Assembly: GCA_007121015.1 (NCBI GenBank)
Contig: SKMN01000048.1
Span: forward strand, 1,666 to 65,665
Length of the DNA stretch: 64,000 nt
Reading direction: 5' to 3'
Origin: Coriobacteriia bacterium
GTDB taxonomy: Bacteria; Actinomycetota; Coriobacteriia; Anaerosomatales; SLCP01
Shown: positions 9,643 through 62,095 of the stretch, piece after piece
How the letters are laid out: every line of letters starts with the position of its first letter
How positions within the stretch are numbered: position 1 is the stretch's first letter
Notes under the pieces: model-generated
What the model saw: the letters and a program-made list of their open reading frames with translations, nothing else
Told to the model about the DNA's origin: nothing
The model's database searches: none
Made by a program: the position numbers and the translations under genes

Positions 9643-10400
9643 TGCTTGCTCGAGCCACGCTGGCCGCACCCACCGCCACCTCGCTCGCACGGTGGGAAGT
9701 CCGCCTGAAACTCATCGGGCTCCTCTGTCTCGTGTTCGCTTTCGCGGGGGTCAACGATGTCCGCCTCTTGCCGGTGATGCTCGCGACCGCCTTCGTCGTC
9801 TACCGACTCTCGTCGCTCCCCTTCAGGTATCTCATATCGCGTCTGAAGGTGCCCGGGATCTTCCTCGTCGCGCTCGCCGTGGTGCTGCCCCTCTTCTCCG
9901 GCGAGACCGTGATCGCGCAGTTCGGGCCGGTGGCCCTGCGGCTCGAAGGCACCGTGTCGTTCGTGTCGATCGCCGCACGTTTCGTCAGTATCATCACCGT
10001 TGCGACCGTGTTGTTCGCGACGACGCCGATGCCCACGCTCGTCAGGGCGATGAACTCCCTCGGACTGCCCCCACTCCTCGGCGACATGCTGCTCTTCACG
10101 TATCGCTACATCTTCCAACTTGCCGAGGACCTCAGCCGGGCGCGGACCGCAGCCCGGCTGCGCGGCGCGGACCTCGGCTCGGTGCGTTCGGTCAAGACCA
10201 CGGCCTACATCATCGGGTCGCTCCTGATACGCAGCAACTGGCAGGCCGAGCGGGTCCTTGCGGCGATGACGCTTCGCGGGTACGGTGCTTCTCGGGCTCG
10301 ATCGCCGCGCCACGCGCCGCAGGCCTGGGACGTCGCCGGGCTTGTCGCGTGCGTGGCCCTGGCCGCCGTCCTGGCGCTCTTCCCGGTACTTGTCCTGTAA
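9642..10400 (+). CDS. cbiQ: ECF transporter transmembrane (T) component CbiQ/NikQ
   Basis: It shows typical CbiQ topology and the coupling-helix region ARLRGADLGS...RSNWQAERVLAAMTLRGY. Confidence 0.8.
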   Translation: MLARATLAAPTATSLARWEVRLKLIGLLCLVFAFAGVNDVRLLPVMLATAFVVYRLSSLPFRYLISRLKVPGIFLVALAVVLPLFSGETVIAQFGPVALRLEGTVSFVSIAARFVSIITVATVLFATTPMPTLVRAMNSLGLPPLLGDMLLFTYRYIFQLAEDLSRARTAARLRGADLGSVRSVKTTAYIIGSLLIRSNWQAERVLAAMTLRGYGASRARSPRHAPQAWDVAGLVACVALAAVLALFPVLVL

Positions 10401-10446
10401 GGCGACCGGACGTGCGAGCCGCCCCCTGACGAGGAGAGAGTCTCTA

Positions 10447-11211
10447 GTGAGAGCAGTGCACGCCAGCAACCTCACCTTCGGGTACCCCGGTGGCACGCCG
10501 GTGCTCGACGGCGTGACGGTGGGACTCGACCCAGGAGAGAGGGTCGGCATCATCGGCCCGAACGGAGCGGGGAAGACGACCCTGTTCATGCTGGTGTGCG
10601 GGGTCGCCGAGCCGATGTCCGGAGGGCTCGAGGTCTTTGGACAGCGGGTCGAGACGGGAGCGTTCAGGCCCGAGATCGGGATGGTGTTCCACCACACGAA
10701 CGACCAGTTGATCTGCCCCACGGTGCGCGAAGACATCGCCTTCGGGCCACAGAATATCGCCCTTTCCCGACAGGAGGTCGAAGAACGGGTCGATGCTACG
10801 GTTTCGGCAACGGGGATCGTGCACCTGCTCGACCGGGCGCCCCACGAGCTCTCGAGCGGCGAGCAGCGTCTCGTCGCGCTCACCGGCGTTCTTGCGATGA
10901 TGCCACGGCTCCTTATCCTCGACGAGCCGACCTCAGACCTGGACCTTCGCTACCGGAGGCGGCTCATACAGATGCTCGCCGAGATGAAGGAGCATACCCT
11001 CATGATCGCCTCGCACGATCTCGAGTTCGTCCTCGAGACGTGCGACCGGGTCCTGTTGCTCGATCGGGGCAGGGTCCAAGCCGACGGCGTCCCAGCAGAC
11101 GTGATGTCGGACTCGGGACTGATGGAGGCGCACGGCCTCGAAGTGCCTCACTCGTTGATGGCGCAGTGGCATAGGCACAGCGCGCCCGCGCACGCAGACT
11201 CCGACGGGTGA
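10447..11211 (+). CDS. cbiO: ECF transporter ATPase CbiO/NikO
   Basis: Walker A GPNGAGKTT, signature LSSGEQRLV and Walker B LLILDEPTSDLD are present. The GTG start lies 7 nt after GAGGAGAGAG. Confidence 0.88.
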   Translation: MRAVHASNLTFGYPGGTPVLDGVTVGLDPGERVGIIGPNGAGKTTLFMLVCGVAEPMSGGLEVFGQRVETGAFRPEIGMVFHHTNDQLICPTVREDIAFGPQNIALSRQEVEERVDATVSATGIVHLLDRAPHELSSGEQRLVALTGVLAMMPRLLILDEPTSDLDLRYRRRLIQMLAEMKEHTLMIASHDLEFVLETCDRVLLLDRGRVQADGVPADVMSDSGLMEAHGLEVPHSLMAQWHRHSAPAHADSDG

Positions 11212-32995: not shown

Positions 32996-33418
32996 GTGGT
33001 ACGCATCGCGCATTTCGATACGATCGGCGACATGCTCGACCAGACCCCCGAGCTGTCCACCTTCAACCAGCTCGTCCGTCGTTCGGGCGTGATCGTGGAC
33101 CTTGACGGGGAGGGGCCGTTCACCGTCTTCGCCCCCACGAACGAGGCGTTCGACAAGCTGCCGCCCAACGCGCTCGGGAACATCGTCAAAGTGCCCGCCG
33201 ACCTCGAACGTTTCGTGCGCCACCATGTCGCGCCCGGTTCGTTCGACCGGGAACGCATCATAGCCAGCGACGTGGTACCTACGGTGCTCGGGGTGGGGCT
33301 CGAGGTGATAGACGCAGAGCCTGGTCCTTACGTGGGCGGCGCGAGAGTGGTCGACGCGGATATCGGCACGGGTAACGGCGTGGTTCACACGGTCGATGAC
33401 GTCATCGGTCCAGAGTAG
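32996..33418 (+). CDS. Fasciclin (FAS1) domain protein with no signal peptide
   Basis: It has GPFTVFAPTNEAFDKLP and NGVVHTVDDVI. The domain starts within about 15 residues of the GTG start. Confidence 0.8.
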   Translation: MVRIAHFDTIGDMLDQTPELSTFNQLVRRSGVIVDLDGEGPFTVFAPTNEAFDKLPPNALGNIVKVPADLERFVRHHVAPGSFDRERIIASDVVPTVLGVGLEVIDAEPGPYVGGARVVDADIGTGNGVVHTVDDVIGPE

Positions 33419-34376
33419 AGTCGCGCGGGTCGTAGCCCACTTCGAGTGCGTCTGTCGCCCACGAACTTACTGAGAGGCTTGGACCGGACAAGAGCGCCGC
33501 GCGAAGCCACTCCCACACTGTTGCAACGGCATGCGCGGTGCTCCGACCGATGGCGGTGTCTGCGACTGCTCTTCCCTCGGCCATGCGCGCCATCGCATCT
33601 CGTAGAGCCGGGTCGTACGGTATCTCGGCCACGAGGGGGACGCACCGCTCGGCGCACAGGTCGCGCACTCGCTCGGCACCGGCTGATGAGAGATCGGCCT
33701 TGTTGAGCACGGCGGCCATCGGCACGTCGAGGTGTGTGACGAGCGACTCGAGCCGGCCGAGGTCGTGCGCTCCGGAGTACGTCGGTTCCGCCACGGCCAG
33801 AACCATGTCGGTGCCGGTCGCAGAAGCGATGGCGGGACATCCGGTTCCCGGGGGCCCGTCGATGAGCAGTAGTTCGGCTCCGTGGGCCGCTGCAAGTGCG
33901 GACGCGCGGCTCCGCACCTCGGTGACGAGCTTGCCGCTGAGGTCGTGACCAGGCCGGAGCTGCCCGAAGGCGAGCGGACCTACCGCTGACACCCCCGTGC
34001 TCACGCTGCCGGCGATGTCGCGCGAGAACGTCACGGCATCCACTGCGCACACGAACGCGCACGTCGTACACCCCTCGCAGGCGATCGTATCGACACGGTA
34101 GACATCATCGGTCGAGGAGATCGCACCGAATCGGCACGCGGCGGCACATGCCCCACACCCCATGCATCGCCCGGGATCGATCGACGCTGTCAGACCGCCC
34201 TCGAACACCTCGCTGCGTTCGTGCGCGAACCCGAGCGCGAGCGGCAGGTTCGAGGCCTCTACATCTGCGTCCGCTACCGCGATTCTGATCGATGAGGCCG
34301 AAAGGTGCGCTAACAGCGCCGAGAGGGTGGTCTTGCCCGTCCCGCCTTTGCCGGATGCGACCGTGATGGTTTTCAT
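33402..34376 (-). CDS. MinD/ParA-class P-loop ATPase with an inserted 2x[4Fe-4S] ferredoxin domain (COG1149 type), copy B
   Basis: It has the deviant Walker A ASGKGGTGKTT plus CMGCGACAAAC and CEGCTTCAFVC. The start overlaps the upstream stop (ATGA). The long N-terminal part of ORF 33402-34733 was rejected. Confidence 0.82.
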   Translation of the reverse strand: MKTITVASGKGGTGKTTLSALLAHLSASSIRIAVADADVEASNLPLALGFAHERSEVFEGGLTASIDPGRCMGCGACAAACRFGAISSTDDVYRVDTIACEGCTTCAFVCAVDAVTFSRDIAGSVSTGVSAVGPLAFGQLRPGHDLSGKLVTEVRSRASALAAAHGAELLLIDGPPGTGCPAIASATGTDMVLAVAEPTYSGAHDLGRLESLVTHLDVPMAAVLNKADLSSAGAERVRDLCAERCVPLVAEIPYDPALRDAMARMAEGRAVADTAIGRSTAHAVATVWEWLRAALLSGPSLSVSSWATDALEVGYDPRDSTLDR

Positions 34377-35314
34377 CGGTGGACCACGGCGGGTCGTGTG
34401 CCATGGGCGGAGACGCTCTCGATCCACGTGCCTATCGGCTCGAGCCACTGCGCCGGTGCATCGGCGTACTCCGACACGAGCGTACCGCCGGCGTACGCTT
34501 CGGCGATGCGCCGGTCGAACGGTATCGAGCACACCACCGATATGCCGTGTGCGGCCGCCAGCCGCTCTACGTCGTACGTCCCGTTGGTCACCTTGTTCGC
34601 CACGACGGTCGCAGGAACGTTCGTATCCGCTGCGAGGTGAAGTGCGAGCTCGAGGTCGTGGAGCCCGAAGGGTGTGGGCTCCGTGACGAACAGGAGCGCA
34701 TCGGCCGCACGCACCGTAGCGACGACGGGGCACGCGACGCCGGGTGGCGCATCGAGGAGTACGAGATCCGCCGGAGCGTGCATCGCCGCCGCTACCGCGT
34801 CACGGATGACGTCGGGTGCCTTGACCTGCCCGATGTCGAGCACACCTGCGACCAGCTGCAGCCCGGGGTGTCGCAGCGCACGGCTCATTGTAACGACGCC
34901 GACGCGCCTGCCGACGATCCGCACGGCATCAGCCGGACACACTCTTGCGCAGAGCCCGCACCCGTTGCATAGTTCCTCGAACACGACGACCCGGGTCCCG
35001 AGGAGTCTGAGCGCGCCGCGCGTGCACGCGTCTCGGCAGGCACCGCAGGCGTGGCAGGACGCAGGATCGATCTCTGACACCGGAGCCTCGACGACCGAGG
35101 TCTCCACGTGGGCCACCTTGAAGAACAGGTGGTCGTTGGGTGCGTCGGCGTCGCAGTCGACAAGCGTGACGCTTCGTCCGGAGTGGGCCGCCCACGCCGC
35201 AAGGTTGGCCGACACGAGTGTCTTGCCGGTTCCACCCTTGCCCGAGGCCACCGCGACGGTGAACGGCCCTCCGGGGCCCGCATGGAGCGGACTGGAAGCG
35301 ACACCTGCATCCAT
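34373..35314 (-). CDS. MinD/ParA-class P-loop ATPase with an inserted 2x[4Fe-4S] ferredoxin domain (COG1149 type), copy A
   Basis: It has ASGKGGTGKTL plus CHACGACRDAC and CNGCGLCARVCP. Confidence 0.82.
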   Translation of the reverse strand: MDAGVASSPLHAGPGGPFTVAVASGKGGTGKTLVSANLAAWAAHSGRSVTLVDCDADAPNDHLFFKVAHVETSVVEAPVSEIDPASCHACGACRDACTRGALRLLGTRVVVFEELCNGCGLCARVCPADAVRIVGRRVGVVTMSRALRHPGLQLVAGVLDIGQVKAPDVIRDAVAAAMHAPADLVLLDAPPGVACPVVATVRAADALLFVTEPTPFGLHDLELALHLAADTNVPATVVANKVTNGTYDVERLAAAHGISVVCSIPFDRRIAEAYAGGTLVSEYADAPAQWLEPIGTWIESVSAHGTRPAVVHR

Positions 35315-35318
35315 GGCG

Positions 35319-35699
35319 CTAGTGGCCTCCGCACACGAAGCGGTCGTCCATGGGCTCCACCTCGCGCCTCAGTACGCGAGCGACGACATCTCCGATGCCG
35401 AGCGTGACGTCGTCGAAGTAGACCTCGATGCCGACGTCGCGGAAGCCGGCGAGCGGTCGGGCTCCCATGCCGGCGACGACGAGTGCGTGCACCCCGTGCG
35501 AGGCGAGGAGCTCGACCGGGCGCAGGCAGCCTCCCTCGGCGTGCGGGGGATTATCGATGACGCGGACACCGACGACACCGTCTGCGCCCAACTCCACGAG
35601 CGTGAACACGTCGCAGCGGCCGAAGTGGCCGGAGCGTTCCCCTTCAAGTCCACCCGTGCCGACCGACGGTATCGCGAGCACGGTCGTTTCAGACATCAC
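35319..35699 (-). CDS. NifB/NifX-family (dinitrogenase Fe-Mo cofactor-binding fold, COG1433) protein
   Basis: It has GHFGRCDVFTLVEL...GGC...LLASHGVHALVVAGMGARP, typical of the family. Confidence 0.75.
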   Translation of the reverse strand: MMSETTVLAIPSVGTGGLEGERSGHFGRCDVFTLVELGADGVVGVRVIDNPPHAEGGCLRPVELLASHGVHALVVAGMGARPLAGFRDVGIEVYFDDVTLGIGDVVARVLRREVEPMDDRFVCGGH

Positions 35700-35752
35700 A
35701 GCACTCCATTCTCTCTACGTTGCCAGGATGGAAGACCCCTGAGTCGTATCGT

Positions 35753-36118
35753 TCAGCCGAGACCCGCATGACTCGTGTCCTTGCTCAGGGGGTGCAAGTG
35801 GCCCTCTGCGAAAGCGTGTACGGCCTCTCGCACCTGCATACCTCCCGCAGCCCGGTATCCGCCGATGTCGGCGAGCGCGAGCGCATCGTACGCTTTGGGG
35901 CCGAGGTGCCCGGTGATCACCGCCGCGGCCCCGGCCCGCGCGACGGCTTCGGCTGTACCGGGGCCGGCACCTTGGAGCGCATTGCAGTTCGCACGGTTGT
36001 CGATCGGTTCTGCCGCGAAGGTCTCCGTGTCCACGACCACAAGGTAGGTGGCCCGGCCGAAGCGCTCGTCGACCGGGTCGTCCAGCGTCGGTCCGTAGGC
36101 ACTCACTGCGACCTTCAC
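35753..36118 (-). CDS. NifB/NifX-family (COG1433) protein, second copy
   Basis: It has VDERFGRATYLVVVDTET...GAGPGTAEAVARAGAAAVITGHLGPKA. Its GTG start overlaps the DUF5320 stop (GTGA). Confidence 0.72.
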   Translation of the reverse strand: MKVAVSAYGPTLDDPVDERFGRATYLVVVDTETFAAEPIDNRANCNALQGAGPGTAEAVARAGAAAVITGHLGPKAYDALALADIGGYRAAGGMQVREAVHAFAEGHLHPLSKDTSHAGLG

Positions 36119-36342
36119 AGCCGCCACCCGCGTCCGCCGCGCGCGCCCGGGCCGTGGCGGCGATGTCCGCCCCGGCCTAAGGTTCCCCTCTGGAACCCTG
36201 CTCCGCTCAGCCCTCCGCCGACTCCCAGCCCGCGACGGAGGAATCGCTGTACGATCCGCGGTTCGTCGCTCATGCACTCCCCGCGTCCTCCGCCGGTCAT
36301 CTCTCCGCGGCCCTCCGGGCCACTTCTGTCCAGTCCAGGCAT
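36115..36342 (-). CDS. DUF5320-family Gly/Arg-rich small protein
   Basis: The N-terminus MPGLDRSGPEGRGEMTGGGRGEC matches the MP(R/G).D.TGP.G.GPMTGRG.G.C signature. A strong RBS GGAAGGAGG precedes the start. Confidence 0.7.
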   Translation of the reverse strand: MPGLDRSGPEGRGEMTGGGRGECMSDEPRIVQRFLRRGLGVGGGLSGAGFQRGTLGRGGHRRHGPGARGGRGWRL

Positions 36343-36365
36343 CGTCCTGCCTCCTTCCTCGAGTA

Positions 36366-36791
36366 TCACGCCGTGTCGGTTTCTTTGAGCGCAGAAGACA
36401 GCGCATCCGCTACTCGGGCAGCGACGCGCTGACGCTCCTTCAGGTGGGCGACCCAGTCGCTCGCCAACTCGCGGCCCTCGGCGGTCAGTTCGTACTCGCG
36501 TCGCTGCGGACCGGAGTCACCCTCGGCCCACGTCGACGTCACGAACCCGTCCTCCTCGAGGCGCCGCAGCACGCGGTACAAGCCGCCCGCGTCGACCTCA
36601 AGCTCACCGCCGGTCAACTCTCGTATCTCGCGTCGCAGGTCGTAGCCGTGACCGCCCTGTCGCGCGAGCGCGGCGAGAGCGGCAGGCTCCACGAACGCAC
36701 CCGCCCCCGAACCCGAACCTCGGCGGCAACACGGGCGGCCACCACCGTGCATCCCGCCGCGTCCGGCGTGGAATCCGTGTCCAGCTGTCAC
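36366..36791 (-). CDS. PadR-family transcriptional regulator with a Gly/His/Cys-rich N-terminal extension
   Basis: The winged-HTH core is GHGYDLRREIRELTGGELEVDAGGLYRVLRRLEEDGFV...REYELT. The GTG start follows GGAGG. Confidence 0.82.
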   Translation of the reverse strand: MTAGHGFHAGRGGMHGGGRPCCRRGSGSGAGAFVEPAALAALARQGGHGYDLRREIRELTGGELEVDAGGLYRVLRRLEEDGFVTSTWAEGDSGPQRREYELTAEGRELASDWVAHLKERQRVAARVADALSSALKETDTA

Positions 36792-36816
36792 AGGAGCCCT
36801 CCTCTAGATGTAATCA

Positions 36817-36828
36817 ACAGCTAGCTGT
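36817..36828. promoter_or_regulatory. Perfect palindrome ACAGCTAGCTGT; candidate PadR operator
   Basis: It lies just downstream of the predicted -10 of the PadR-operon promoter. Half-site-related AGCTGTCA copies occur at 36783-36790 and 36856-36863. Confidence 0.45.
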
Positions 36829-36835
36829 ATGGCAC

Positions 36836-36864
36836 AGTATATGAAGCCGACATATAGCTGTCAA
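36836..36864 (-). promoter_or_regulatory. Near-consensus sigma-70-type promoter for the PadR/DUF5320/NifX/MinD operon
   Basis: The minus strand reads TTGACA-N17-TATACT, with -35 at 36859-36864 and -10 at 36836-36841. It sits in the only clearly AT-rich intergenic stretch of this region. Confidence 0.5.
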
Positions 36865-39575: not shown

Positions 39576-39734
39576 ATGGAGGTCAAGGATGGCGACGTAC
39601 TGGTCTGCACCTGCGAGGACTGCGACATAGAGCTGACCGTCACGCGCACGTGCTCTGGCGACACGTGCACTCACGAGACCGAGTGTGAACTGTCGGTGAT
39701 GTGTTGCGGTCGCCCGATGCAGGTCAAAGAGTGA
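39576..39734 (+). CDS. Cys-rich 52-aa protein with a desulforedoxin-like CxxC...CCG..M signature
   Basis: The translation is MEVKDGDVLVCTCEDCDIELTVTRTCSGDTCTHETECELSVMCCGRPMQVKE. A strong RBS AAGGAGG lies 7 nt upstream. It is an internal start within ORF 39327-39734. Confidence 0.6.
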   Translation: MEVKDGDVLVCTCEDCDIELTVTRTCSGDTCTHETECELSVMCCGRPMQVKE

Positions 39735-42451: not shown

Positions 42452-45025
42452 TTACCGTGCTGCGAGCAGGACCGCCAAAAGGACCACGAGCATGATGGAG
42501 AGGGCGAGATCGAGGTCTCGGGTAACGGCGTTCGAGACCCGCCTCAGCGTCACGATGCGCTCCTGCTCGGGCCGGTCCTCGCCCCAGTCGGTGCGCTCTC
42601 TCGTGAACGCCGCGACGACGAGCTGGACGATGTCGGTGATCCAGGCGCCGAGCGTTCTTGGAAGCGGCGAAGCGGACGGCGAGGTGTCTGGCTGGACCGT
42701 CGGAGACGGGCCGAGAGGCCCCTGCGTATGCCAGCCGGGCGGCATCGTGCGTGCGATGTTCCCGGCGAAGTCCTCGGAGTGAAGGATCCGCACGACGAGT
42801 GTCGACATGTGCGGGATCACGTTCTCCCCTGCCATCCTGCGCAGGGCCAGGTCGTGCACGGCGGCGATGATGGTCTCTCTCGTGCGGTCCCCCGCCTCTC
42901 TCAGGGCGATCTCGACGGCTTCAAGAGAGCGCTCGGGATCGGATCGCACCATCCTCGTCGCCGTGGCGATGCGGTCGTTGCGCACCCGCCACGCGGTGTA
43001 GTCGACGATGTCTCGCACGGCATCGATGTACTCGTCGCAGCCTCGTCCCGGGCACGCCGGCGCCTCGCGTTGCCGTTCCTCGGCATGTGCCACGGCGTGT
43101 TCGACCGTGGCGACGCGATCGTCTTCCAGCACGTCACTGATGTGCTGGAAGACGATCGCTGCATGCCTGTCCGGCGAGCCCTCGACGATCGTCGCGATAG
43201 CGCGCTGCCTAGCCCTGCGCCACCGGAGTCGCATGAGTGAGGCACTCGCCGACGCCGACCGGATGGCCCGTGAGGTCGAAACGATGTGCGCCTCGTAGCG
43301 GGTGCCAGCGAGACTCGCCACCTGCAGCCCAGCCTCGATGGAGCGGTCGTACCAGTAGTCGATCGAGGCCCAGCGGGGGACACGTGCGCGAGACACGTCT
43401 ACGCGCGCATCGAGCGCGAAGATGGCGGCGCCCATCGCGAGGGCGAGCAGTGAGAAGCCGGCGTGCTCCCAGGTGAACTGGCGGTAGGAGACGAGTACCG
43501 ACGGGTCGAGACCGAACCCCTGCACGGCCGGGGTGATGGTGCTGTGCAGCAAGACCAGCGGCGCCCACCCTATGGCGAGCATCGCCGCACTCAGCGCGAC
43601 CATCCCCGCCAGCATGCGTGGTGACGCGTCCGCTACCTTCTTCAGCCCGGCGTTCGCCGGGCCACCGAACGTCATCCAGAGCAGTTTCGCGAGTACCGCG
43701 ACCGTTCCGCCGCCGGCGAGCACGAAGGCGGCTTCGAAGGGGCCGATCGCGCCGAGGAGGCGCACCGGTTCGGCTGCCTCGACAGCGTGGTGCAGGAGCG
43801 ACTTGCTCACGAATCCGTTGAGCAAGGGGAGCCCGGTTATCCCGGCGGTTGCGACGACCATGACGGTCAGCGTCTTTGGCATGCTGCGCCACAACCCGCC
43901 GAGGCGGCGCAGTTCCGTCGTGCCCGCATTCTTGAGGACGGCGCCCGCGCCGAGGAAGAGCGCGGCCTTGTAGAGCGCGTGGTTCACGATGTGATAGAGG
44001 CTGCCGGACAGGCCGTACGCGGCCGAGCGGTCACCCGTCAGATACGCCGCCGCCCCGAGTCCGGCGATGACGAAGCCGATCTGGCTGATGCTGCTGTACG
44101 CGAGCATCCGCTTCATGTCGTCTTGCGCAAGGGCGATGGCTACCCCGGCGATCGCCCCGGTCAGGCCTACCACGAGCAGCACGAGGCCCGCAGCCGCACT
44201 GGGATCGACGGAGAGGTCTATCCCTTCGGCAGGCACGAGCAGCATGTACAGCGTGCGCAAGATACCGTACGCACCTGTCTTGATGAGGACGCCCGAGAGC
44301 AGCGCGCTTGCCGGGGACGGGGCCACCGAGTGTGCGTCGGGAAGCCAGATATGCACCGGGAGCATACCCGCTTTGACGCCGAAGCCGAGTACCAGGAGTG
44401 CGGCCGCCAGCCAGCGCAGCGCCGACGTGTCCTCCTGGAAGGGGACGGGAGCGAGCGAATCGCCGCCACCGATGTGGAAAGTGAGCAGCACTCCTGCCAG
44501 CAGAAGGAAACCGCTCGCGATCGTCAGGACGAGGTACTTCGCGGCCGCCCGCTCCGCCTTTCCGGTACGCTTGTGCACCACGAACAGATAGGCGAGGAGA
44601 CCCATGAGCTCGAAGGCGAGGAAGAGCGTCACGAGGTCTCCTGCGAGCACGACCCCCATCGTCGCGCCCAGCGTCGCCAGCGCGGTGACGTGGAATCGGC
44701 TCGAGTCGTCGTCGTCTCGCAGGTAGTCGAGCGAGTGCACGGCGCAGCATGTCCACACGAAGGCGACGACGACCGTCAACAGGTGCGCGAACAGGTCGAG
44801 TGTCAGGGTCGCTTCGGCTAGCAGGAACGGGACCGACACGTGCAGCGGGTAGACGCCACTCGCGACCGGCACGAGCGCGACCGCAGCGACGAGGGTCGCC
44901 GAACTGGCCGCCACGACGAGCGCATCGCGCTGCCGACCCGCTCCGCCTACCACCCCTACGAGCGCCGCCCCGGCGAACGGGAGGCCTACGAGCGCGAGTA
45001 CGAGGGCCGTCATCGGACTCGGCAT
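42452..45025 (-). CDS. MrpA/NuoL-like antiporter-type subunit with a roughly 300-aa hydrophilic C-terminal extension and a terminal TM helix
   Basis: The proton-antiporter core has LAFELMGLLAY, HIWLPDAHSVAPSPASALLSGVLIKTG and HIVNHALYKAALFLGAG. The start was chosen at the ATG 6 nt after GAGGAGG and 14 nt after the upstream stop; the ORF opens at 45097. Confidence 0.82.
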   Translation of the reverse strand: MPSPMTALVLALVGLPFAGAALVGVVGGAGRQRDALVVAASSATLVAAVALVPVASGVYPLHVSVPFLLAEATLTLDLFAHLLTVVVAFVWTCCAVHSLDYLRDDDDSSRFHVTALATLGATMGVVLAGDLVTLFLAFELMGLLAYLFVVHKRTGKAERAAAKYLVLTIASGFLLLAGVLLTFHIGGGDSLAPVPFQEDTSALRWLAAALLVLGFGVKAGMLPVHIWLPDAHSVAPSPASALLSGVLIKTGAYGILRTLYMLLVPAEGIDLSVDPSAAAGLVLLVVGLTGAIAGVAIALAQDDMKRMLAYSSISQIGFVIAGLGAAAYLTGDRSAAYGLSGSLYHIVNHALYKAALFLGAGAVLKNAGTTELRRLGGLWRSMPKTLTVMVVATAGITGLPLLNGFVSKSLLHHAVEAAEPVRLLGAIGPFEAAFVLAGGGTVAVLAKLLWMTFGGPANAGLKKVADASPRMLAGMVALSAAMLAIGWAPLVLLHSTITPAVQGFGLDPSVLVSYRQFTWEHAGFSLLALAMGAAIFALDARVDVSRARVPRWASIDYWYDRSIEAGLQVASLAGTRYEAHIVSTSRAIRSASASASLMRLRWRRARQRAIATIVEGSPDRHAAIVFQHISDVLEDDRVATVEHAVAHAEERQREAPACPGRGCDEYIDAVRDIVDYTAWRVRNDRIATATRMVRSDPERSLEAVEIALREAGDRTRETIIAAVHDLALRRMAGENVIPHMSTLVVRILHSEDFAGNIARTMPPGWHTQGPLGPSPTVQPDTSPSASPLPRTLGAWITDIVQLVVAAFTRERTDWGEDRPEQERIVTLRRVSNAVTRDLDLALSIMLVVLLAVLLAAR

Positions 45026-45038
45026 GTGCGACCTCCTC

Positions 45039-46562
45039 TCATCGGGATCCCGCCAGTGATTCGGCCGCAAGGCGGGCGAGCGAGAGTGCGGACCCATCGG
45101 CGAACGCGGCGATCCCGAGTAGCGCCGTGATCGCGGTGAGCGCGACTATCGGCGCGAGCATGGACGGTGCGGCCTCGTTCCCGGGTCGGGCCGGGGCGAG
45201 CGACCCCTCGCGCTCCTCGGACGGCTCGCCGAGATACGCGATGCGCACTACCGGTAGCAGGTAGACGGCGGCGAGCGCGGCCCCGCCGAGAAGGACCACA
45301 AGGTAACCTCCCGCGCCCGCATCGAGCATGCCGTAGCCGAGGACCCACTTGCTCACGAAGCCCGCCAGCGGCGGGATGCCGATCAAGGCGAGAGCGGAGA
45401 GAGTGAACGCAGCCATCGTCACCGGGAACCGCCGCGCGATCCCTCCCATCTGGCTTACCCGCGTGATGCCCGCGTTTCGTGCGAGCAGCCCGGCGCACAG
45501 GAAGAGACACCCCTTCATGGACGCGTGGTTGGTGATGTGCACGAGTGCGCCTGTCAGCGGGCCGGGTGCGAGCAGGGACGCTCCGAGTGTGATGTATGCC
45601 ATCTGGCTGACCGTCGAATACGCTAGCCGTCGCTTGAGGTCGTCCTGTTTGATGGCGACCACTGCGGCGGAGATCGCCGTGAAGGCCGCAACGGCAGCGA
45701 GCCCGCGGTCGATGGCCAGGACAGCGAGCCATCGCGCTCCCACGACCTCGTAGACGACACGCACGATCCCGAAGGTGCCGGCGGCGACCATGACACCCGA
45801 CAGTGCCGCCGAGAACGGTGCGGGAGCGGCCGGGTGGGCATCGGCCACCCACCCGTGAAGCGGGAAGAGGGCAGCCTTCACCCCGAACCCGGCGATCAGC
45901 AGGAGGGCGGCGCCCGTGGCGGTGGTCGGAGGGGTGCCTGGTCCGAGTACGCCGCCGGCCGCGAAATCGGCAGCGCCCGAGGCGGAGAAGGCGAGGGCGC
46001 CGCCCATCACGAGCAAGCTCCCGCCGGCCGCGATGTAGACGATGTACTTGCGGGCCGCGGCGATCGCGCTGGAGGTGCCCTCGTGCACTATAAGAGCATA
46101 GGACATGATCGAGAAGAGTTCGTAGAAGGCGAGGAAAGTGATCAGGTCCCCGGCGTACGCGACACCCATCAGGCCCGCGAGACAGAGCATCGAGAACGTA
46201 TGGTATCGGCCTGCGTACCGGTCGTCGCGCAGGTAGCCGACGGAGAACACGAATATGAACGACCACAGCACCGCAACGCTCAGTCCGAAGAGAGCGCCTG
46301 CCGCGTCCACGCGGAGCGACAGGTACACGTCTGGCATCAGCCGGACCAGACGTATCTCGTGCGAGGACCCTGCGAGCACGCCGCGGACGAGTATCGCCGC
46401 GAACAGCGCCGAGGCGACGGGCGCGGTGCCGAGCAGGAGGAAGCGCCCACGTCGTGGCAGCCGACCGTAGAGCAGGGAGAGGCACGCTGCGGCGAGGGGA
46501 AGGAGAACCGCCCACAGCGCGGGTGATAGGAGGCTGTTCGAATGGACGGACATCCTAGTCAC
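45039..46562 (-). CDS. MrpD/NuoM/N-like antiporter-type subunit (third copy)
   Basis: It has AFYELFSIMSY, HGWVADAHPAAPAPFSAALSGVMVAAG and HITNHASMKGCLFLCAG. Confidence 0.85.
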   Translation of the reverse strand: MTRMSVHSNSLLSPALWAVLLPLAAACLSLLYGRLPRRGRFLLLGTAPVASALFAAILVRGVLAGSSHEIRLVRLMPDVYLSLRVDAAGALFGLSVAVLWSFIFVFSVGYLRDDRYAGRYHTFSMLCLAGLMGVAYAGDLITFLAFYELFSIMSYALIVHEGTSSAIAAARKYIVYIAAGGSLLVMGGALAFSASGAADFAAGGVLGPGTPPTTATGAALLLIAGFGVKAALFPLHGWVADAHPAAPAPFSAALSGVMVAAGTFGIVRVVYEVVGARWLAVLAIDRGLAAVAAFTAISAAVVAIKQDDLKRRLAYSTVSQMAYITLGASLLAPGPLTGALVHITNHASMKGCLFLCAGLLARNAGITRVSQMGGIARRFPVTMAAFTLSALALIGIPPLAGFVSKWVLGYGMLDAGAGGYLVVLLGGAALAAVYLLPVVRIAYLGEPSEEREGSLAPARPGNEAAPSMLAPIVALTAITALLGIAAFADGSALSLARLAAESLAGSR

Positions 46563-46565
46563 CCC

Positions 46566-48047
46566 CTACATCCCGAACGCCTGCGCGACGGCGGTCCGAG
46601 CGATCGACAGCGGCATGCCCGGCAGGTCGCTTACGAGGCCGAGCAGTATCACGAGGACGGCGCAGACGAGTGTCGGGTAGAGCAGCGACGGGCGGGCCTC
46701 GCCCAGCGTCGGTTCCTCGGACACCGGCTTGAAGAAGGCGAGATAGAGCATCGGGAACCAGTACGCGGCGTTCAGCAGCGCGCTCGCGGCCATGACGAGT
46801 GCTACCCACCACATCCCGGAGTCGAACCCGCCGACCGACATATGCCACTTGCTGATGAAGCCCGCAAGCAGCGGCATCCCCGTGAAGCCGAGCGCCGCCA
46901 CCCCGAAGGCGCCCATCGTCGCGGGCATCCGCCGTCCGATGCCGCTCATCTCACTGATGTTCGTCTTGCCGGTGGTCCGCTGTATCGCGCCGGCGGCGAA
47001 GAACATGGTCACCTTCTGCACCGCCTGGTTCGCGATGTGGACGACGGCCGCGACCGCTGCCCAGGGATTGAGTAGTGCGATGCCGAGAAGCACGTACGAG
47101 AGCTGGCTGACGGTCGAGTACGCGAGTCTTCGCTTGAGGTTGTCTTGCAGCAAGGCCATCACCGATGCGGCGATGATGGTGAATGCGGCGAGATAGGCCA
47201 GGGCGTCCGGGAGCCAGGTCTGTCGCAAGAGCTCGACGCCGAAGACATCGTGCACGGTGCGCACCACGCCGAACGCCCCTGCCTTGACGACCGCGACCGC
47301 GTGAAGTAGCGCGCTGACGGGTGTGGGCGCGACCATCGCTCGTGGCAGCCAGCCGTGGAGCGGCATGATCGCCGCCTTCACGCCGAACCCGAGCGTCAGC
47401 ATGACGAAGAGTATCGCAAGCACCGCGGGTGTCGTGTCTGGCGGCACGATGCCGTTGTGGCCGAACGCGAGGACGCCGTCCGACACGACGTAGGTCATCG
47501 CTATGCCGAGGAGTATCACGCCGCCGCCGGTGAGGGTGTAGGTGAAGTACGTGCGCCCGGCTCTCAGCGCCTCCGGCGTCTCGTCGTGGACCACGAGGGG
47601 GTAGGCGCTGATGGTGAGGACCTCGTAGAAGATGAAGAGGGTGAGCAGGTTCTCGGCGAGAGCCAGGGCGACCGTAGCGGAGACGCATAAGGCGAAGAAA
47701 CCGAAGAAGCGGCCCAGTGACCGCTCGCCCTTCATGTAGCCGATCGAATACACGGTCGCCACGACCCACAGCAGTGACGACACGGTCGCGAACGCCATCC
47801 CGAGGGCATCGGCACGGAACCCTATGCCGATGCCCGGCGCGAACTCGGCAAAACGGAAGGTGTAGGCGACGCCTCCCACGGTACCGGGAAGCATGGAGGC
47901 AACGATGATGAACTTGAGGAGCGCGGCGCTCATGCTCCAGAAGCGCCGCCAGCCCGCTCTGCTCCCGCCGATGAAGACGAGCAGTGCGCATACGAAGGAG
48001 ACCATCGGCGCGAGAGCCGGACGTATGTCCCACACCTCGACGGGCAT
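46566..48047 (-). CDS. MrpD/NuoM/N-like antiporter-type subunit (second copy)
   Basis: It has IFYEVLTISAY, HGWLPRAMVAPTPVSALLHAVAVVKAG and HIANQAVQKVTMFFAAG. Confidence 0.85.
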   Translation of the reverse strand: MPVEVWDIRPALAPMVSFVCALLVFIGGSRAGWRRFWSMSAALLKFIIVASMLPGTVGGVAYTFRFAEFAPGIGIGFRADALGMAFATVSSLLWVVATVYSIGYMKGERSLGRFFGFFALCVSATVALALAENLLTLFIFYEVLTISAYPLVVHDETPEALRAGRTYFTYTLTGGGVILLGIAMTYVVSDGVLAFGHNGIVPPDTTPAVLAILFVMLTLGFGVKAAIMPLHGWLPRAMVAPTPVSALLHAVAVVKAGAFGVVRTVHDVFGVELLRQTWLPDALAYLAAFTIIAASVMALLQDNLKRRLAYSTVSQLSYVLLGIALLNPWAAVAAVVHIANQAVQKVTMFFAAGAIQRTTGKTNISEMSGIGRRMPATMGAFGVAALGFTGMPLLAGFISKWHMSVGGFDSGMWWVALVMAASALLNAAYWFPMLYLAFFKPVSEEPTLGEARPSLLYPTLVCAVLVILLGLVSDLPGMPLSIARTAVAQAFGM

Positions 48048-49535
48048 CTAGCCTCCCCCCAGAAGCCGCATCACCCCGGGAAGGGCGATGCCGATCGGCA
48101 CCTGGGCGATGAGGCCCAGCGCCAGTGACGCACCCGAAAGAAGGACCACGGGGGCGAGCATATCGAGGGGCGGATCGACCGCTCTCTCGACCTCCTCGTG
48201 CACGGCGGGACGGAAGTAGAACGCGTTGACGATCCGGAGGTAGTAGATGAGCATCACGAGTGCACTGAAGACGAGCGTCGCGGCCAGGAGCGGACGGGCT
48301 GCGGCCACCGCTCCGACCGCCAGATACCACTTCGTCACGAATCCCGCAGTGGGCGGGACGCCGACGACGGATATCACGGCGACGGAGAGGGCACCGACGG
48401 TGATGGGCATGCGCCGTCCTATCCCGCGGAGGTCCGACACCGTGCGATACCCCGTCCGAAAGGTCAGTGCGCCGAGGGCGAGGAACAGCGCCGCCTTGAT
48501 GACCGCGTGATTGAAGATGTGTATCGATGCACCGGTGAGCCCGCTCTCGTTGAATAATCCCAGTCCGACGGCGATGTAGCCGATGTTGGAAACGGTCGAG
48601 TAGGCCAGCATGAGCTTGATGTCGTCTTGGATGAGTGCGAGGACCGCGCCGAACACGATCGCTATGGCGCCAAGGGTCGAAAGTCCCATGTTGAACGTGG
48701 GCAGATCGACGCCGCCGGCTCCCTGGAAGATATCGTAGGTCCGGATCAGGCCCACGATCCCCATCTTGACCACGAGTCCGGACAGGATCGCGCTCACAGG
48801 ACTTGGCGCGGCGGCGTGCGCGTCGGGTAGCCACAGGTGGAGTGGGAAGACGGCAGCTTTGGTCATGAAGCCGAGGGCGAGCGCCCCGAATGCAAGCACG
48901 ACTGGACGGTGTGGCACGCCGTCCGCGAGGCGATACGCCATATCGGCCATGTTGAGCGTTCCCGTCAGCTGGTAGAGCAGGCCGATCGAGAAGAGCACGA
49001 GCAGCGACGAGAACGCACCCATGACGAGGTACCTGAACGACGCCGCGGCCGCGACCTTCTGCTTGCCGTACGCGACCAGCGCGTAGGCCGACAGCGAGAA
49101 CAGCTCCATGAACACGAAGAGGTTGAAGAGGTCGCCGGTGAACGAGAAGCCGAGGAGACCCCCGAGGTTGATCAGCAAGAGCGCGTCGTAGGGGCCTCGG
49201 CGCGCCGCTTCGACCGCGTGGCGCGAGTACCGGACGCCGTAGAAGACCACCAGGGCGAACACAGGGGCGGCGAGTCCGACGAGGGCCCCGAACTGGTCTG
49301 CCCTCAGCTCGATCCCCCACGGAGCCAGCCACCCTCCGAGGTGGTGGGAGAAGGGGCCGACGTGCGAGACCCTCACGCTCACCATGAATGCGCCGGCACA
49401 CGTCACCGTCGTCACGAGTAGGGTCCACGCGGTCGCCACCCGGTCCGAGATCCGATGGAGTGGAAGGCACAGGGCTGCGCCTGTCACCGGGAGCGCAAGC
49501 ACGCTCACGAGGAGCTGTCCCGGCCACTCGCTCAT
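48048..49535 (-). CDS. MrpD/NuoM/N-like antiporter-type subunit (first copy)
   Basis: It has FMELFSLSAY, HLWLPDAHAAAPSPVSAILSGLVVKMG and HIFNHAVIKAALFLALG. The start overlaps the mnhC stop (ATGA). Confidence 0.88.
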   Translation of the reverse strand: MSEWPGQLLVSVLALPVTGAALCLPLHRISDRVATAWTLLVTTVTCAGAFMVSVRVSHVGPFSHHLGGWLAPWGIELRADQFGALVGLAAPVFALVVFYGVRYSRHAVEAARRGPYDALLLINLGGLLGFSFTGDLFNLFVFMELFSLSAYALVAYGKQKVAAAASFRYLVMGAFSSLLVLFSIGLLYQLTGTLNMADMAYRLADGVPHRPVVLAFGALALGFMTKAAVFPLHLWLPDAHAAAPSPVSAILSGLVVKMGIVGLIRTYDIFQGAGGVDLPTFNMGLSTLGAIAIVFGAVLALIQDDIKLMLAYSTVSNIGYIAVGLGLFNESGLTGASIHIFNHAVIKAALFLALGALTFRTGYRTVSDLRGIGRRMPITVGALSVAVISVVGVPPTAGFVTKWYLAVGAVAAARPLLAATLVFSALVMLIYYLRIVNAFYFRPAVHEEVERAVDPPLDMLAPVVLLSGASLALGLIAQVPIGIALPGVMRLLGGG

Positions 49536-56036: not shown

Positions 56037-56371
56037 CGGTCTGCCCGCGCACGCGTCGTGATGATGGCCGCCGCTACCCCGGCGGGGAGCATGGCTGCTG
56101 CGATGCTGGAACTGCGGGTCATCGGGGCGCGAGTGACGACCGAGCGTACGGCCACGGTAGCGGAGTGCACGTGGACCACCTTTCTGCCGGGTGACTATGA
56201 CGTCTCTACCCGTTCAGGCGGCCTTGCGAGCGTGGTGGGCTTGGCCCCCTTCATGCTTGAGTGCTCCGGGTCGATCGTTGCCGTTCGTCACGTGCATTCG
56301 AGTCGGGGCTTGTTCGCGCCGATTCAGAAATGAGAAGCGGAATCTCTGATAGTGAAGGGCACCACGACGAT

Positions 56372-59300
56372 ATGATCGGCTACACGATGCCCTCGAGGCA
56401 CATCTCGTTCCTGATCGCCGTGCTCGTAGCGGTCTTGTTCGCAGGAGTCACTCCCGCACGGGCTACGACAGATGACGGGGTGCGTACCTGGGGGCCGTCG
56501 CCCTTCCCCGACGCCGATCCCCCAGCACACCAGCTTATCGTGCGCTTCGTCCCGCACCTCGAGTTCAACTTCGCGGCTCAAGGCGTGGCACATGTACGCG
56601 CCGGCACCACGCGTGTCCGCGGATTGTGGGGTATGCCTGGCTACGATCTCGTCTCGGTGCCGAAGGGTTCCTCGGCAGAGCAAGCCATGCGGCGCTATCT
56701 TGCAGACCCGTCCGTGTCTTACGTCGAGCCAGACCATGCCGTGCGCGCCTGGGTGCTTCCAGACGACCCGCTCTTCGGGCAGCAGTGGGCGCTCAGGAAC
56801 ACCGGCCAGAGTGGCGGAACGCCCGGGGCTGATATCGGCGCTGCGGACGCATGGACAGTGACCACCGGCGGGCCGGACGTGCTGGTAGCGGTCGTGGACA
56901 CCGGCGTCGACTACGAGCACCCCGACCTCGCACCGAACATGTGGAGCAAGCTCGGCTGGAACTTCGCCGAGAGGAACTCCGATCCGATGGATAACCACGG
57001 CCACGGTACGCACGTGGCCGGGACCGTCGCTGCTGCGGGAAACGACAGCTACGGCGTGGCAGGCGTAGCGTGGGAAGCGCAGATCATGGCGCTCAAGGCG
57101 CTCGGCGATGACGGACGCGGGTGGACGTCGGACATCATCGACGCTGTCAACTATGCGAGCTACTATGGCGCCGACATCATCAACATGTCGCTCGGGGGCG
57201 GTTCTTACTCGCAGGCGTTCTACGATGCCATCGAGGCATCCGAGGCGCTCATCGTCGCCGCCGCGGGCAACAACGGAAGAGACAACGACTCCTCGCCGAG
57301 TTATCCGGCCTCCTACGACCTCGACAACATCATCGCCGTCGCCGCCACCGACCGTGACGACGCACTTGCGAGCTGGTCGAACTACGGGGCCGAGAGCGTC
57401 GACCTCGGCGCTCCCGGCGTGGCGATCCTCAGCACGGTCCCGGGACACACGTACGAGGCGACCACGGCGTTCGCCGATCCGTTCGACACCCTGGACGCAT
57501 GGAGCACCAACTCCTACTGGTACCATCCCTGGACGCTGAGCTCGACGCGGTACGTGAGTCCTCCACATTCGGCGGGCCATGCGCCGAGCGGCGGGTACGT
57601 CGCCAACGAGCAGTCATGGATCTTCACCACCGACTACGTCTCGCTCCTCGACGCGGATCGCATAGCCGTGCGTTTCATGGCGCGCCTCGACACGGTCTCA
57701 AGCGATGATTGGTTGGTCCTCGCGGCGAAGCCGGAAGGCGCTCTCGGGTGGACTGCTCTGGCGATCATCGCCGGTCCGACCGGGGAGTTCAGGAGCTACG
57801 GACTAGAGACGACGGCGATGGCCGGGACGCGGGCCCAGTTCGCGTTCGTGTTCGTGAGCGGAGACGCAGGTGGGGGCGCAGGTGTGTGGGTGGATGACGT
57901 CGAGATCGATTCACTGGTACGGGACAGCGACTCCGACTACAGCGATGCGCACGGCTACATGAGCGGGACATCGATGGCCGCTCCTCACGTCGCGGGCGTG
58001 GCTGCGCTACTCAAGGCGTACGCTCCCGGCCTCGACGCCATCGGCCTCAAGGGGGCGATCCTCGACACGGTCGCGCCCCTCCCGGGTCTCGATGGCACAA
58101 CGCTCACCGGCGGCAGGCTCGACGCGGGTGCGGCGGTCGCCTCGGTAAAGCCTCCCAAAAGCGCTCCGGTGGCGCGAGATGACTCCTACACGGCCGAGGC
58201 CGGCTTCGAGCTCACGGTTGTGGCACCCGGCGTGCTCGCCAACGATACCGATGCCGACGGCGACGAACTCGTCGCGGAGCCGATCACTCATCCGGCCGAG
58301 GGCAAGCTCTCATTGCACGCCGACGGTTCGTTCGCGTACATGCCGCCACACGGGTTCATCGGCCAGGAGACGTTCACCTACCAGGCATACGACGGCGTGG
58401 AATACTCGGATCCAGCGACGGTCACCATCACGGTGGCCGACACCATCGATCCGATGAGCGTTGCCGTACTCGACCCCTCACCGGCTGATGGCGCGCAAGG
58501 ATGGTTCGTGAGCGTCCCTGCGATCAGCATCGAGGCCACCGACACCGGTTCGGGCGTCGATCACGTCGAGTGGAGATTCGGTGACGACGAGTGGGTGAAG
58601 GATCCCGTGGTGACAGGCGTCGTGGACGGGAAGCACGTGCTGCTCTATCGCTCGATAGACATAGCGGGCAACGTCGAGGAGGCTCGGCGCATCGAGTTGG
58701 CGGTGGACACGAGTCCGCCAGTGACCATGTCGGATGTGGCCGAGGAGGTATATGCCGCCCCCACGACGATATCCCTCGTCGCCACCGACACGGTCTCGGG
58801 GGTTGCGGCTACGTACTACTCACTCGATGGCAGCGAGGCCACGACGTACACGACCCCCATCGACATCGCGGAACCTGGTGAGTACACGCTCTCCTTCAGG
58901 AGTATCGACGTTGCGGGGAATACCGAGGAGACGCAGACGGTCGGGTTCACGCTCCTGCCGCCCGTCATCGAGATCGCGGGCGCTACGCGTTTCGACACTG
59001 CGGTGGAAGCGTCACGGGAGGCGTTTCCGGACGGTGCGGATGTCGTCATCATCGCGACAGGGACAGACTGGCCTGATGCTCTCGGCGGTTCGGCCCTTGC
59101 GGGCGTGCTCGACGGGCCGGTCCTGCTCGTGCAACATGATTCGGTGCCGGCCTCGGTGCGCGCGGAGATCGAACGTCTCGGTGCGAGCCGGGCGGTCATC
59201 GTCGGTGGTAAGGCGGCTGTCGGCACTGCGGTGTCGGATGCGTTCGGTGCTGCCGGGTTGGATGTCGAGCGTATCGCAGGGGCATCTCGCTACGAGACCG

Positions 59301-62020: not shown

Positions 62021-62095
62021 GGGCGATTAACTCAGCGGGAGAGTGCCTCCCTTACAAGGAGGAAGTCGGCGGTTCAAATCCGTCATCGCCCACCA
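62021..62095 (+). tRNA. tRNA-Val (anticodon TAC), CCA-encoded
   Basis: The cloverleaf was folded by hand. The acceptor stem is GGGCGAT/ATCGCCC, the D stem ACTC/GAGT and the anticodon stem CCTCC/GGAGG with loop CTTACAA. The T stem is GGCGG/CCGTC with loop TTCAAAT, and the 3' end is ACCA. Confidence 0.9.

Follow-up and report, generated by a model that had tools for sequence, protein, structure and literature searches.

The DNA analysed here is a 64,000-nucleotide stretch, hereafter called the window, from contig SKMN01000048.1 of a Coriobacteriia bacterium (assembly GCA_007121015.1), and its open reading frame (ORF) listing and sequence place six co-directional, tightly packed genes on the minus strand at 33402–36791. 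A preliminary description made from the sequence had called a six-gene operon at this place and assigned the protein families, and both the operon and the assignments were borne out by the ORF listing and a Pfam profile search. Read from the promoter-proximal end, the genes encode a short, LmrR-like PadR-family regulator of 141 amino acids (36366–36791; PF03551, 1.8e-20, 73 bits against a cut-off of 27, residues 39–109), a DUF5320-type small protein of 75 amino acids (36115–36342; PF17253, 28.5 bits against a cut-off of 27), a NifX-like protein of 121 amino acids (NifX-like A; 35753–36118; PF02579, Nitro_FeMo-Co, 3e-17) that is a homolog of the orange protein (ORP, Orp8), a second NifX-like protein of 125–126 amino acids (NifX-B; 35319–35696/35699; PF02579, 1e-16), and two P-loop ATPases, ATPase A (34373–35314; 313 amino acids, Orp3/Orp4 class) and ATPase B (33402–34376; 324 amino acids), both with CbiA/ParA-type and Fer4 matches in Pfam, a search that also gave a weak Fer4_NifH match. 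No terminator-like site was found interrupting the six-gene unit. Two overlaps between neighbouring genes had been described, of which the GTGA at 36115–36118 is real, and the ATGA is likewise real at 34373–34376, where the ATPase B start lies on the ATPase A stop, while the end coordinate 36376 given for it was a typographical error. The DUF5320 start, formerly set at the GTG at 36369, was moved to the ATG at 36342, 23 nt past the PadR stop, because the homologs (MPGLDR...) and a GGAGG ribosome-binding site support it.

Weak, partial matches of the operon's products to the NCBIfam model of MrpORP pointed to the orange-protein system of Desulfovibrio. NifX-like A matches the Desulfovibrio gigas orange protein (PDB 2WFB) with E = 1.1e-22 and is 46% identical to it over 107 gap-free residues; it retains each of the 14 positions reaching ≥80% conservation among 64 ORP-type sequences, which, NifX-like A included, combine the NifX fold with not a single conserved cysteine. 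As proxies for a comparison with DVU2103/DVU2104 we used the operons around two close homologs of D. gigas ORP (loci L092 and L093; 68% and 75% identical to it), both of which have the gene order ORP, ATPase, ATPase, NifX-like, Zn_ribbon_8, the one at L093 being preceded by DUF134 and a Gly/Arg/Gln-rich small ORF. NifX-like A is 44–45% identical to the ORPs of these operons; in BLASTP, ATPase A is 38–41% identical to their first ATPase and 32–33% to the second, ATPase B 40% to the second and 36% to the first, and NifX-B 43% to their trailing 3-Cys NifX-like protein, with ATP1–A1, ATP2–A2 and NifX-B–NX2 (window member first) as reciprocal best matches. Given the ORP homology and these clean one-to-one relations, the window encodes the four-gene ORP core. 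Therefore, what had been described as a nameless set of unknown function belongs to the Desulfovibrio ORP system, and by sequence the six-gene operon appears to be an ORP-type module under a different regulator, an identity that is well supported.

Beside these comparisons, the ORP core of Desulfobacterota-like loci is followed by a small Zn_ribbon_8 protein whose C-terminus is rich in Cys (...GCCG..P..AGCAGPG.CCGK; L092 9651–9905, L093 9669–9917 and 12 other loci). This protein, which the window lacks, is probably the [2Fe-2S] protein of the Orp5/Dde_3197 type.

For the Desulfovibrio system, biochemistry has been published. The D. vulgaris ORP complex consists of Orp3, Orp4, Orp5, Orp8 and Orp9, the paralogs Orp3 and Orp4 having two [4Fe-4S] motifs apiece; His-tagged Orp3 "systematically" brings down Orp4 and Orp8, the holo Orp3–Orp4–Orp8 complex has an Fe-S spectrum, and MrpORP (Orp9) reloads the apo complex (PMC6345978). 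ORP-type proteins hold a Mo-Cu-S cluster non-covalently (PMC6345978, PMC8359166); the D. gigas ORP is reported to be isolated with [S2MoS2CuS2MoS2]3- and to help related clusters form in vitro. The orp genes are switched on only at low redox potential, by the regulator OrpR, a sigma54 activator whose PAS domain has a [4Fe-4S] cluster and which is restricted to the delta-Proteobacteria (PMC8359166). In view of this work on ORP, Orp3–Orp4–Orp8, MrpORP and OrpR (PMC6345978, PMC8359166), the preliminary statement that no biochemical role had been established was too strong, although the physiological function is indeed stated as unclear (PMC8359166); the likeness it drew to systems of nucleotide-switch ATPases and NifX-like carriers was right. 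No relevant literature was found on DUF5320, COG1149, COG1433 or DUF134.

Like the Desulfovibrio ORP cluster, the window operon thus combines an ORP-type NifX-fold protein with two paralogous P-loop ATPases carrying two [4Fe-4S] motifs each (37% identity in the window; 41% similarity between Orp3 and Orp4), in clustered, co-transcribed genes with a dedicated cysteine-bearing regulator. It differs in its gene order, which is ORP–NifX-B–A–B rather than ORP–A–B–NifX-B or two divergent operons; in having a sigma-70-type promoter and PadR in place of sigma54, IHF and OrpR; in the DUF5320 peptide and the actinobacterial-like, high-GC host; and in lacking Orp5 (the Cys-rich Zn-ribbon protein), Orp7 and Orp9/MrpORP. 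These last three reportedly were placed outside the ORP 'core' by Maiti in 2016.

The ATPases had been described as a paralogous, non-identical pair with two ferredoxin motifs each, and so they are: at 37% identity, both have the deviant Walker A sequence GKGGTGKT and two CxxCxxCxxxC motifs. In ATPase A the ferredoxin insert comprises Cys 87, 90, 93 and 97 and Cys 116, 119, 122 and 126, eight invariant columns, and a further invariant cysteine, Cys195, lies in PPGxxCP; both ATPases have this lone conserved cysteine in PPG(V/T)(A/G)CP. An AlphaFold2 model of ATPase A (pLDDT, the predicted local distance difference test, 87.7) found its best Foldseek matches in ATPase-type HypB, a Ni metallochaperone, and in MinD, FleN, Soj, ApbC and NifH, and no solved structure containing the inserted ferredoxin domain was found. 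The pair shares with Mrp/NBP35/ApbC and MrpORP the fold of the deviant-Walker-A SIMIBI ATPases, the signature GKGGhGK[ST] being matched by GKGGTGKT in both, but the window ATPases lack the conserved CxxC by which Mrp/NBP35 monomers bridge a [4Fe-4S] cluster between them and have the inserted ferredoxin domain instead, and the NifX-fold domain that is fused in MrpORP is a separate gene here. Their NCBIfam matches to MrpORP cover only the N-terminal ~50 residues and are far under the cut-off, as are their scores against the MinD-type models TIGR01968 and TIGR01969. A hydrophobic-moment scan for a MinD-like C-terminal helix was non-discriminating, both proteins ending in non-helical, non-amphipathic tails, and in the window no minC- or minE-like gene adjoins the module. 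The 64-kb window has no further deviant-Walker-A protein, DUF134 or Mrp/NBP35 homolog.

At its 3′ end the ATPase B gene overlaps a convergent fasciclin-domain gene (32996–33418, plus strand) by 17 nt (33402–33418). The protein has a window-specific C-terminal extension of about 30 amino acids (LLSGPSLSVSSWATDALEVGYDPRDSTLDR), relatives being 296–305 amino acids long without it; an ancestral stop codon may have been lost.

The two ATPases are also found fused, in the order of the separate genes, in three natural proteins (P0068; L030, 6010–7821; L079, 2040–3379) with two Walker A and four ferredoxin motifs each. In an AlphaFold2 model of P0068 the second half stayed below pLDDT 50, without alignment depth, and the interface is not readable from it. 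A putative A–B heterodimer is supported indirectly by the constant pairing of the genes and by these fusions, together with the published co-purification of Orp3, Orp4 and Orp8. As for NifX-B, Cys29, Cys58, Cys123, His25 and His53 are conserved among 16 relatives, and its best NCBIfam match is the Di-Nase part of MrpORP, a domain that binds [3Fe-4S] via HFGHC-type motifs; judged by its sequence, NifX-B is a probable Fe-S binder.

Co-conservation of the genes outside the source genome was examined in a survey of 88 loci (80 metagenome and 8 genome) around ATPase relatives of 34–57% identity. In 62 of the 65 informative loci the first ATPase gene is immediately followed by a second, an arrangement far beyond chance, and in 33 of 36 there is a NifX-fold gene within 4 kb (ORP type in 32, B type in 21); the core is thus widely co-conserved. 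The DUF5320 N-terminal motif occurs in 26/36 loci, and half of the 36 have a recognisable regulator (12 DUF134, 4 PadR, 2 sigma54 enhancer-binding proteins). ATPase A has thousands of relatives, the nearest at 50–64% identity in Coriobacteriia, Thermoleophilia, Gaiellaceae and Actinomycetota metagenome-assembled genomes (MAGs); a search with D. gigas ORP returned more than 2,200 close relatives; and module homologs occur in Actinomycetota, Desulfobacterota, Calditrichota, Bacteroidota, Eremiobacterota, Lentisphaerota and archaeal MAGs. Co-conservation of the four core genes across many phyla is therefore directly supported. The PadR-headed form recurs in five loci, one from Coriobacteriia (L002), one from Thermoleophilia (L003), and L001, L094 and L096, three of the five with DUF5320, and the presence of PadR rather than DUF134, once taken for a local difference, is lineage-wide in Coriobacteriia and Thermoleophilia MAGs and metagenome contigs. 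The divergent glutamine-synthetase gene that had been pointed out is present, but its adjacency to the module is not conserved at related loci, and a functional link to it was rejected, the neighbour being incidental.

Upstream of the PadR gene, on the minus strand, lies a strong sigma-70-type promoter (36836–36864) with the −35 hexamer TTGACA (36864–36859), a 17-nt spacer and the −10 hexamer TATACT (36841–36836), which matches the consensus at 11 of 12 positions, 0.2 promoter-like sites being expected in shuffles of the region; TTGAC and TATAGT-like hexamers stand at the same position in L001, L002, L013, L094 and L095. Between the −35 and the −10, and overlapping the latter, is a candidate operator, O1 (36837–36857, minus strand), with the dyad CTATATG-N7-CATATAC. 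Its conserved form, CTA[TG]ATG-N7-CATATA[GC], is found directly past the −35 in 7/8 promoters of PadR genes with the Cys-Cys tail described below (PadR-CC); the 64-kb window has this one copy and 0/100 shuffles have any, and among 96 loci it is confined to PadR-CC promoters. On these sequence grounds O1 is proposed as a PadR autorepression site, since binding across the core promoter would amount to autorepression. A weaker dyad, O2 (36804–36824, minus strand; CTAGCTG-N7-CATCTAG), lies between the transcription start region and the ribosome-binding site, and L001, L003 and L095 have an ACATCTAC-like element some 20 nt upstream of the start codon; with three differences from the O1 consensus, O2 remains a candidate only. 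The palindrome at 36817–36828 that had been singled out for PadR binding exists and overlaps O2, but it was rejected as the main operator in favour of the adjacent O1, which is the conserved element. An Rfam search of the window found no riboswitch near the operon.

The regulator that would bind there consists of a PadR core and an N-terminal tail of about 32 residues rich in Gly, His, Arg and Cys, in which the codons of Cys21–Cys22 lie at 36726–36731. Forty-three PadR proteins in the PDB match residues ~33–135 of the window protein, leaving the N-terminal 32 amino acids as an extra part; in these proteins the winged helix-turn-helix starts at residue ~4–23, and an extension of the window type is absent from the solved structures. 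The motif [M]HGGGRPCCRR[AG]GGGG[GR]GA[LF]VEP is present in 111 of the 120 best homologs, the other nine being N-terminally truncated gene calls; the Cys pair stands exactly 12 residues before helix 1 in 89/109 homologs, and many have an extra Cys or a CxxC upstream of it. The family numbers 217 proteins at E≤1e-8, and the window PadR is 77–83% identical to its nearest relatives, above the conservation of the enzymes; for at least 19 of the PadR homologs listed, the longest contig is equal in length to that of a listed ATPase A homolog, and the two genes probably share a contig. The protein resembles PadR subfamily 2 (LmrR-like) in its single winged-helix domain with a C-terminal helix in a ~110-residue core, in being encoded first in its presumed target operon, and in the AT-rich dyad with ATGT/ACAT-like half sites, but the conserved ~32-residue HGGGRPCCRR-Gly tail sets the window family apart. 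The Bacillus subtilis PadR operator is ATGT-N8-ACAT, and the half-site spacing of the window dyad differs from it. In comparison with OrpR (DVU2106), both are dedicated regulators encoded with the orp genes; each has conserved cysteines in an appendage with a known or presumed sensing role, and its promoter a palindromic operator or, in the window, a candidate for one. The folds and modes of action are unrelated, OrpR being an AAA+ sigma54 activator with a PAS sensor, and the window protein a small winged-helix PadR that probably represses a sigma-70 promoter and has a ~30-residue tail bearing a vicinal Cys pair.

One of the surveyed loci, L095 (5001–5845), has a PadR-CC gene with the conserved operator followed by a lone NifX-fold gene of 145 amino acids and no ATPases; this makes it a reduced regulator–carrier pair, and the ATPases of that genome may be encoded elsewhere.

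The preliminary description had also observed that the PadR N-terminus echoes the DUF5320 peptide. This observation holds for the window pair, MHGGGRPCC against MTGGGRGEC, and the echo is a position-specific conserved motif. The DUF5320 family pattern comprises an N-terminal MPxGDxTGPxGxGPxTGRGxGxC, a Gly/Arg-rich middle and a C-terminal coiled coil; the window protein has the N-terminal motif MPGLDRSGPEGRGEMTGGGRGEC followed by the Gly/Arg-rich tail and lacks the coiled-coil half, its PF17253 match covering profile positions 1–58 of 99, while a canonical member at L022 scores 104 bits. Orthologs of the window protein are found in L001, L003, L012 and L096, and the family takes coiled-coil, Zn-ribbon and, in Actinobacteria, tail-only forms. 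A search of all representatives returned nine relatives, all stand-alone proteins of 69–96 amino acids, with no fusion to PadR, NifX or DUF134. In a short subtype, MPRGDGTGP...GRG is followed by a 4-Cys zinc-ribbon (CxCPxCG...CPxCG) that replaces the coiled coil (L009 6783–7007, L022 4431–4688, L066 1227–1439, L074 3192–3404 and others), and the gene often lies directly before that of the first ATPase.

Gly/Arg-rich, often Cys-containing tails are a wider property of the regulators of ORP modules, found at the N-terminus of PadR proteins and at the C-terminus of DUF134 proteins (as in ...CRGRGRGCRRRE at L093). In a strict test, the tail was found in 5/12 PadR proteins (10/12 with CC or CxC) and 12/21 DUF134 proteins, that is 17/33 regulators, against 2/150 control neighbour ORFs. 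IssA of Pyrococcus furiosus offers a precedent, a NifX-fold protein whose cationic Gly/Arg/aromatic tail binds anionic thioferrate (PMC5524996). It shares with the window the combination of a NifX fold (IPR003731) with a cationic, probably disordered Gly/Arg/aromatic sequence in an anaerobic, sulfide-rich context; it is unlike the window in that its tail is fused to the NifX domain, whereas the window NifX-fold proteins have none and similar sequences occur as the separate DUF5320 gene and on the regulator, and in that it has no ATPase partners, while the window gives no evidence for nanoparticles. We tentatively suggest, as an idea somewhat against the odds, that the tails of DUF5320, PadR and DUF134 could be one hitherto undescribed functional module, convergently acquired by the unrelated transcription factors and with a common target, either a metal-sulfide species or a docking site on the Orp3/Orp4 dimer, through which the loading state of ORP would be reported. 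Binding of a metal-sulfide species or cluster by the tail fits the invariant Cys pair and the precedent of OrpR.

Based on these findings, we propose that all six genes are transcribed as a single unit from the sigma-70-type promoter and encode a variant ORP system. In this proposal, ATPases A and B would form an ATP-switched heterodimer with four [4Fe-4S] clusters, onto which the NifX-fold carriers ORP and NifX-B would dock, and the nucleotide-driven conformational change, together with electrons from the ferredoxin domains, could load, transform or release an anionic metal-sulfide species, Fe-S or thiometallate, that ORP would hold, the cationic DUF5320 peptide serving as an accessory. PadR would repress its own operon by binding the conserved dyad across the −35/−10 region, and its HGGGRPCCRR tail could be the signal input, filling the role of the Fe-S PAS domain of OrpR; if the tail is such an equivalent, the system would be made only in a reduced, metal- and sulfide-replete cytoplasm. 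Taken as a whole, from the ORP variant through the heterodimer working on metal-sulfide carriers to the autorepression, we regard this explanation as probable, with considerable room for doubt. Several points weigh against it. The actinobacterial members are known here from their genes, the biochemistry being that of Desulfovibrio, and we infer PadR's DNA binding, the direction of regulation and the ligand of the tail alike. The whole 64-kb window contains no Orp5-like (Zn_ribbon_8) protein, no Orp7 and no Orp9/MrpORP, and the absence of the last leaves the window system without the known cluster donor. A Pfam census of 150 neighbouring ORFs from 45 loci identified no conserved client enzyme and no Mo/W gene, Radical_SAM proteins (9/150), methyltransferases (6) and Lactamase_B proteins (6) being not above the expectation for anaerobe genomes. 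Moreover, the Mo-Cu cluster seen on ORP may have arisen during isolation or be one among several possible ligands, and the sole phenotype in Desulfovibrio is an altered cell morphology (PMC8359166).

That phenotype is also the starting point for a quite different explanation, first put forward for Desulfovibrio, wherein the ATPase pair would be a MinD/ParA-like positioning or cell-division system that binds membrane or nucleoid and positions the divisome, and the NifX-fold proteins and Fe-S domains only redox-dependent modulators. Inactivation of OrpR causes morphological defects in D. vulgaris, from which a direct or indirect role in division was hypothesised (PMC8359166), a MinD-like amphipathic helix at the C-terminus has been reported for Orp3/Orp4 and a polar location for MrpORP, and MinD, FleN and Soj are among the closest folds; but ATPase-type HypB, ApbC and NifH match that fold about equally, the phenotype described is an indirect one, carriers of metal clusters are the invariant partners, and at no locus examined does the module contain or adjoin a MinC, MinE or ParB-type protein, so that we consider this reading improbable. 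The same class of ATPases suggests another role for the tails, namely not as ligand sensors but as partner peptides that would dock on the ATPase dimer and stimulate it in the manner of an arginine finger, PadR being autorepressor and ATPase cofactor at once, its DNA binding controlled by how much of it the ATP-bound dimer sequesters. ParG, ParB and MinE have N-terminal tails that stimulate ParF, ParA and MinD in this way, and the window ATPases belong to the class regulated by such tails. By analogy, ParF–ParG, ParA–ParB and MinD–MinE would resemble the window system as deviant-Walker-A dimers with a small DNA-binding autorepressor and a flexible, Arg-containing tail; the tails at issue are Arg-rich, Gly-flanked and predicted to be flexible, they occur on regulators of two unrelated folds and on DUF5320 far above the control level just given, and they are paired within the window itself. 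An arginine finger, however, has no need of an invariant vicinal Cys pair with an upstream Cys or CxxC, many DUF5320 tails are Gly/Arg/Trp-rich repeats nearer to the thioferrate-binding tail of IssA, and in the window the partners are metal-cluster carriers with no centromere or division function evident. A partner-peptide role is accordingly a serious minority view, and we think it rather unlikely.

The remaining alternatives stay within metal chemistry. The module could be an Fe-S scaffold, carrier or store of the Mrp/NBP35 or IssA kind, with a cluster bridged at the ATPase dimer interface and thioferrate stored by the NifX-fold and DUF5320 proteins, an account to which MrpORP and ApbC as structural relatives, the conserved Cys195 in the switch II-like PPGxxCP, and the resemblance of DUF5320 to an IssA-type tail encoded separately all lend weight, as does the ability of IssA, whose tail binds thioferrate, to rebuild [4Fe-4S] ferredoxin (PMC5524996). 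Yet the defining CxxC of Mrp/NBP35 is missing, each subunit contributing one conserved Cys; ORP-type proteins have no conserved Cys, the cationic tail of the window is unfused to a NifX domain, and the account overlaps the ORP explanation preferred here, differing mainly in naming the ligand; in its specific form we judge it unlikely. Less favoured still is a module that handles thiomolybdate or thiotungstate with copper, for Mo/W detoxification or salvage in a sulfidic cytoplasm, in which the Mo-Cu-S cluster would be the true ligand. The cluster isolated with D. gigas ORP, to which the window protein is 46% identical, and the MoaE and xanthine-dehydrogenase-type genes upstream of the module at L003 speak for it, whereas the other PadR-type loci have unrelated neighbours, genes for Mo/W cofactors or transport were not enriched in the neighbour census, the other components of the module are Fe-S proteins, and the family is very widespread, with the >2,200 close ORP relatives noted above; on balance such a role seems poorly probable. 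Finally, a remnant of, or accessory to, nitrogenase cofactor biosynthesis, with NifX/NafY-like carriers and a NifH-like ATPase, is suggested by the name of the Pfam family, the weak Fer4_NifH match and NifH among the distant structural matches, but no nif genes occur in the window or at any related locus examined, the best matches are ORP, MTH1175 and TM1816 rather than NifX or NafY, and inserted ferredoxin domains take the place of the NifH bridging cluster, which makes this origin very nearly negligible.

Among anaerobe-associated gene modules whose function is not known, the ORP system is one of the most widespread, and its only studied regulator, OrpR, is confined to the delta-Proteobacteria; this locus presents the ORP core under wholly different control, by a small PadR with a sharply conserved Cys-Cys tail and a candidate 21-bp operator. 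While the ORP core was already known, the regulator, the operator, the gene order, the absence of Orp5/7/9 and the lineage are new. If the tail senses Fe-S or thiometallate, it would be a new sensor type within the PadR family, and if the shared-tail module is true, it would give the first direct experimental handle on the ORP ligand and function. The Gly/Arg(/Cys) tails are short and synthesisable and could serve as bait for the physiological ligand or partner. The window module is minimal, with four core genes and neither MrpORP nor Orp5, and is suited to reconstitution. The finding leaves the function of ORP unsolved and makes the question more testable.

Elsewhere in the window, a 636-amino-acid ORF at 8973–10883 (minus strand) has no Pfam match at E≤1e-5 and is overlapped on the opposite strand by a 445-amino-acid ORF (9063–10400); in DNA of 65% GC the former could be spurious. 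Between a DUF308 membrane protein and a Na+/H+ exchanger lies a 52-amino-acid Cys-rich ORF (39576–39734, plus strand; MEVKDGDVLVCTCEDCDIELTVTRTCSGDTCTHETECELSVMCCGRPMQVKE, 9 Cys) with no Pfam match, which may encode a metal-binding peptide or be no gene. At least three Proton_antipo_M proteins (881, 493 and 495 amino acids) are encoded at 42452–49535 (minus strand), in a cluster that resembles either a multisubunit cation/proton antiporter of the Mrp type or a module akin to complex I and is unrelated to the ORP operon. The only Rfam match in the window is a tRNA gene at 62021–62092 (plus strand). A 1210-amino-acid subtilase (Peptidase_S8; 56261–59893, plus strand) has cadherin/Big domains and three CWB2 cell-wall-binding repeats, which suggests a Gram-positive-type envelope and fits an actinobacterial-like host.

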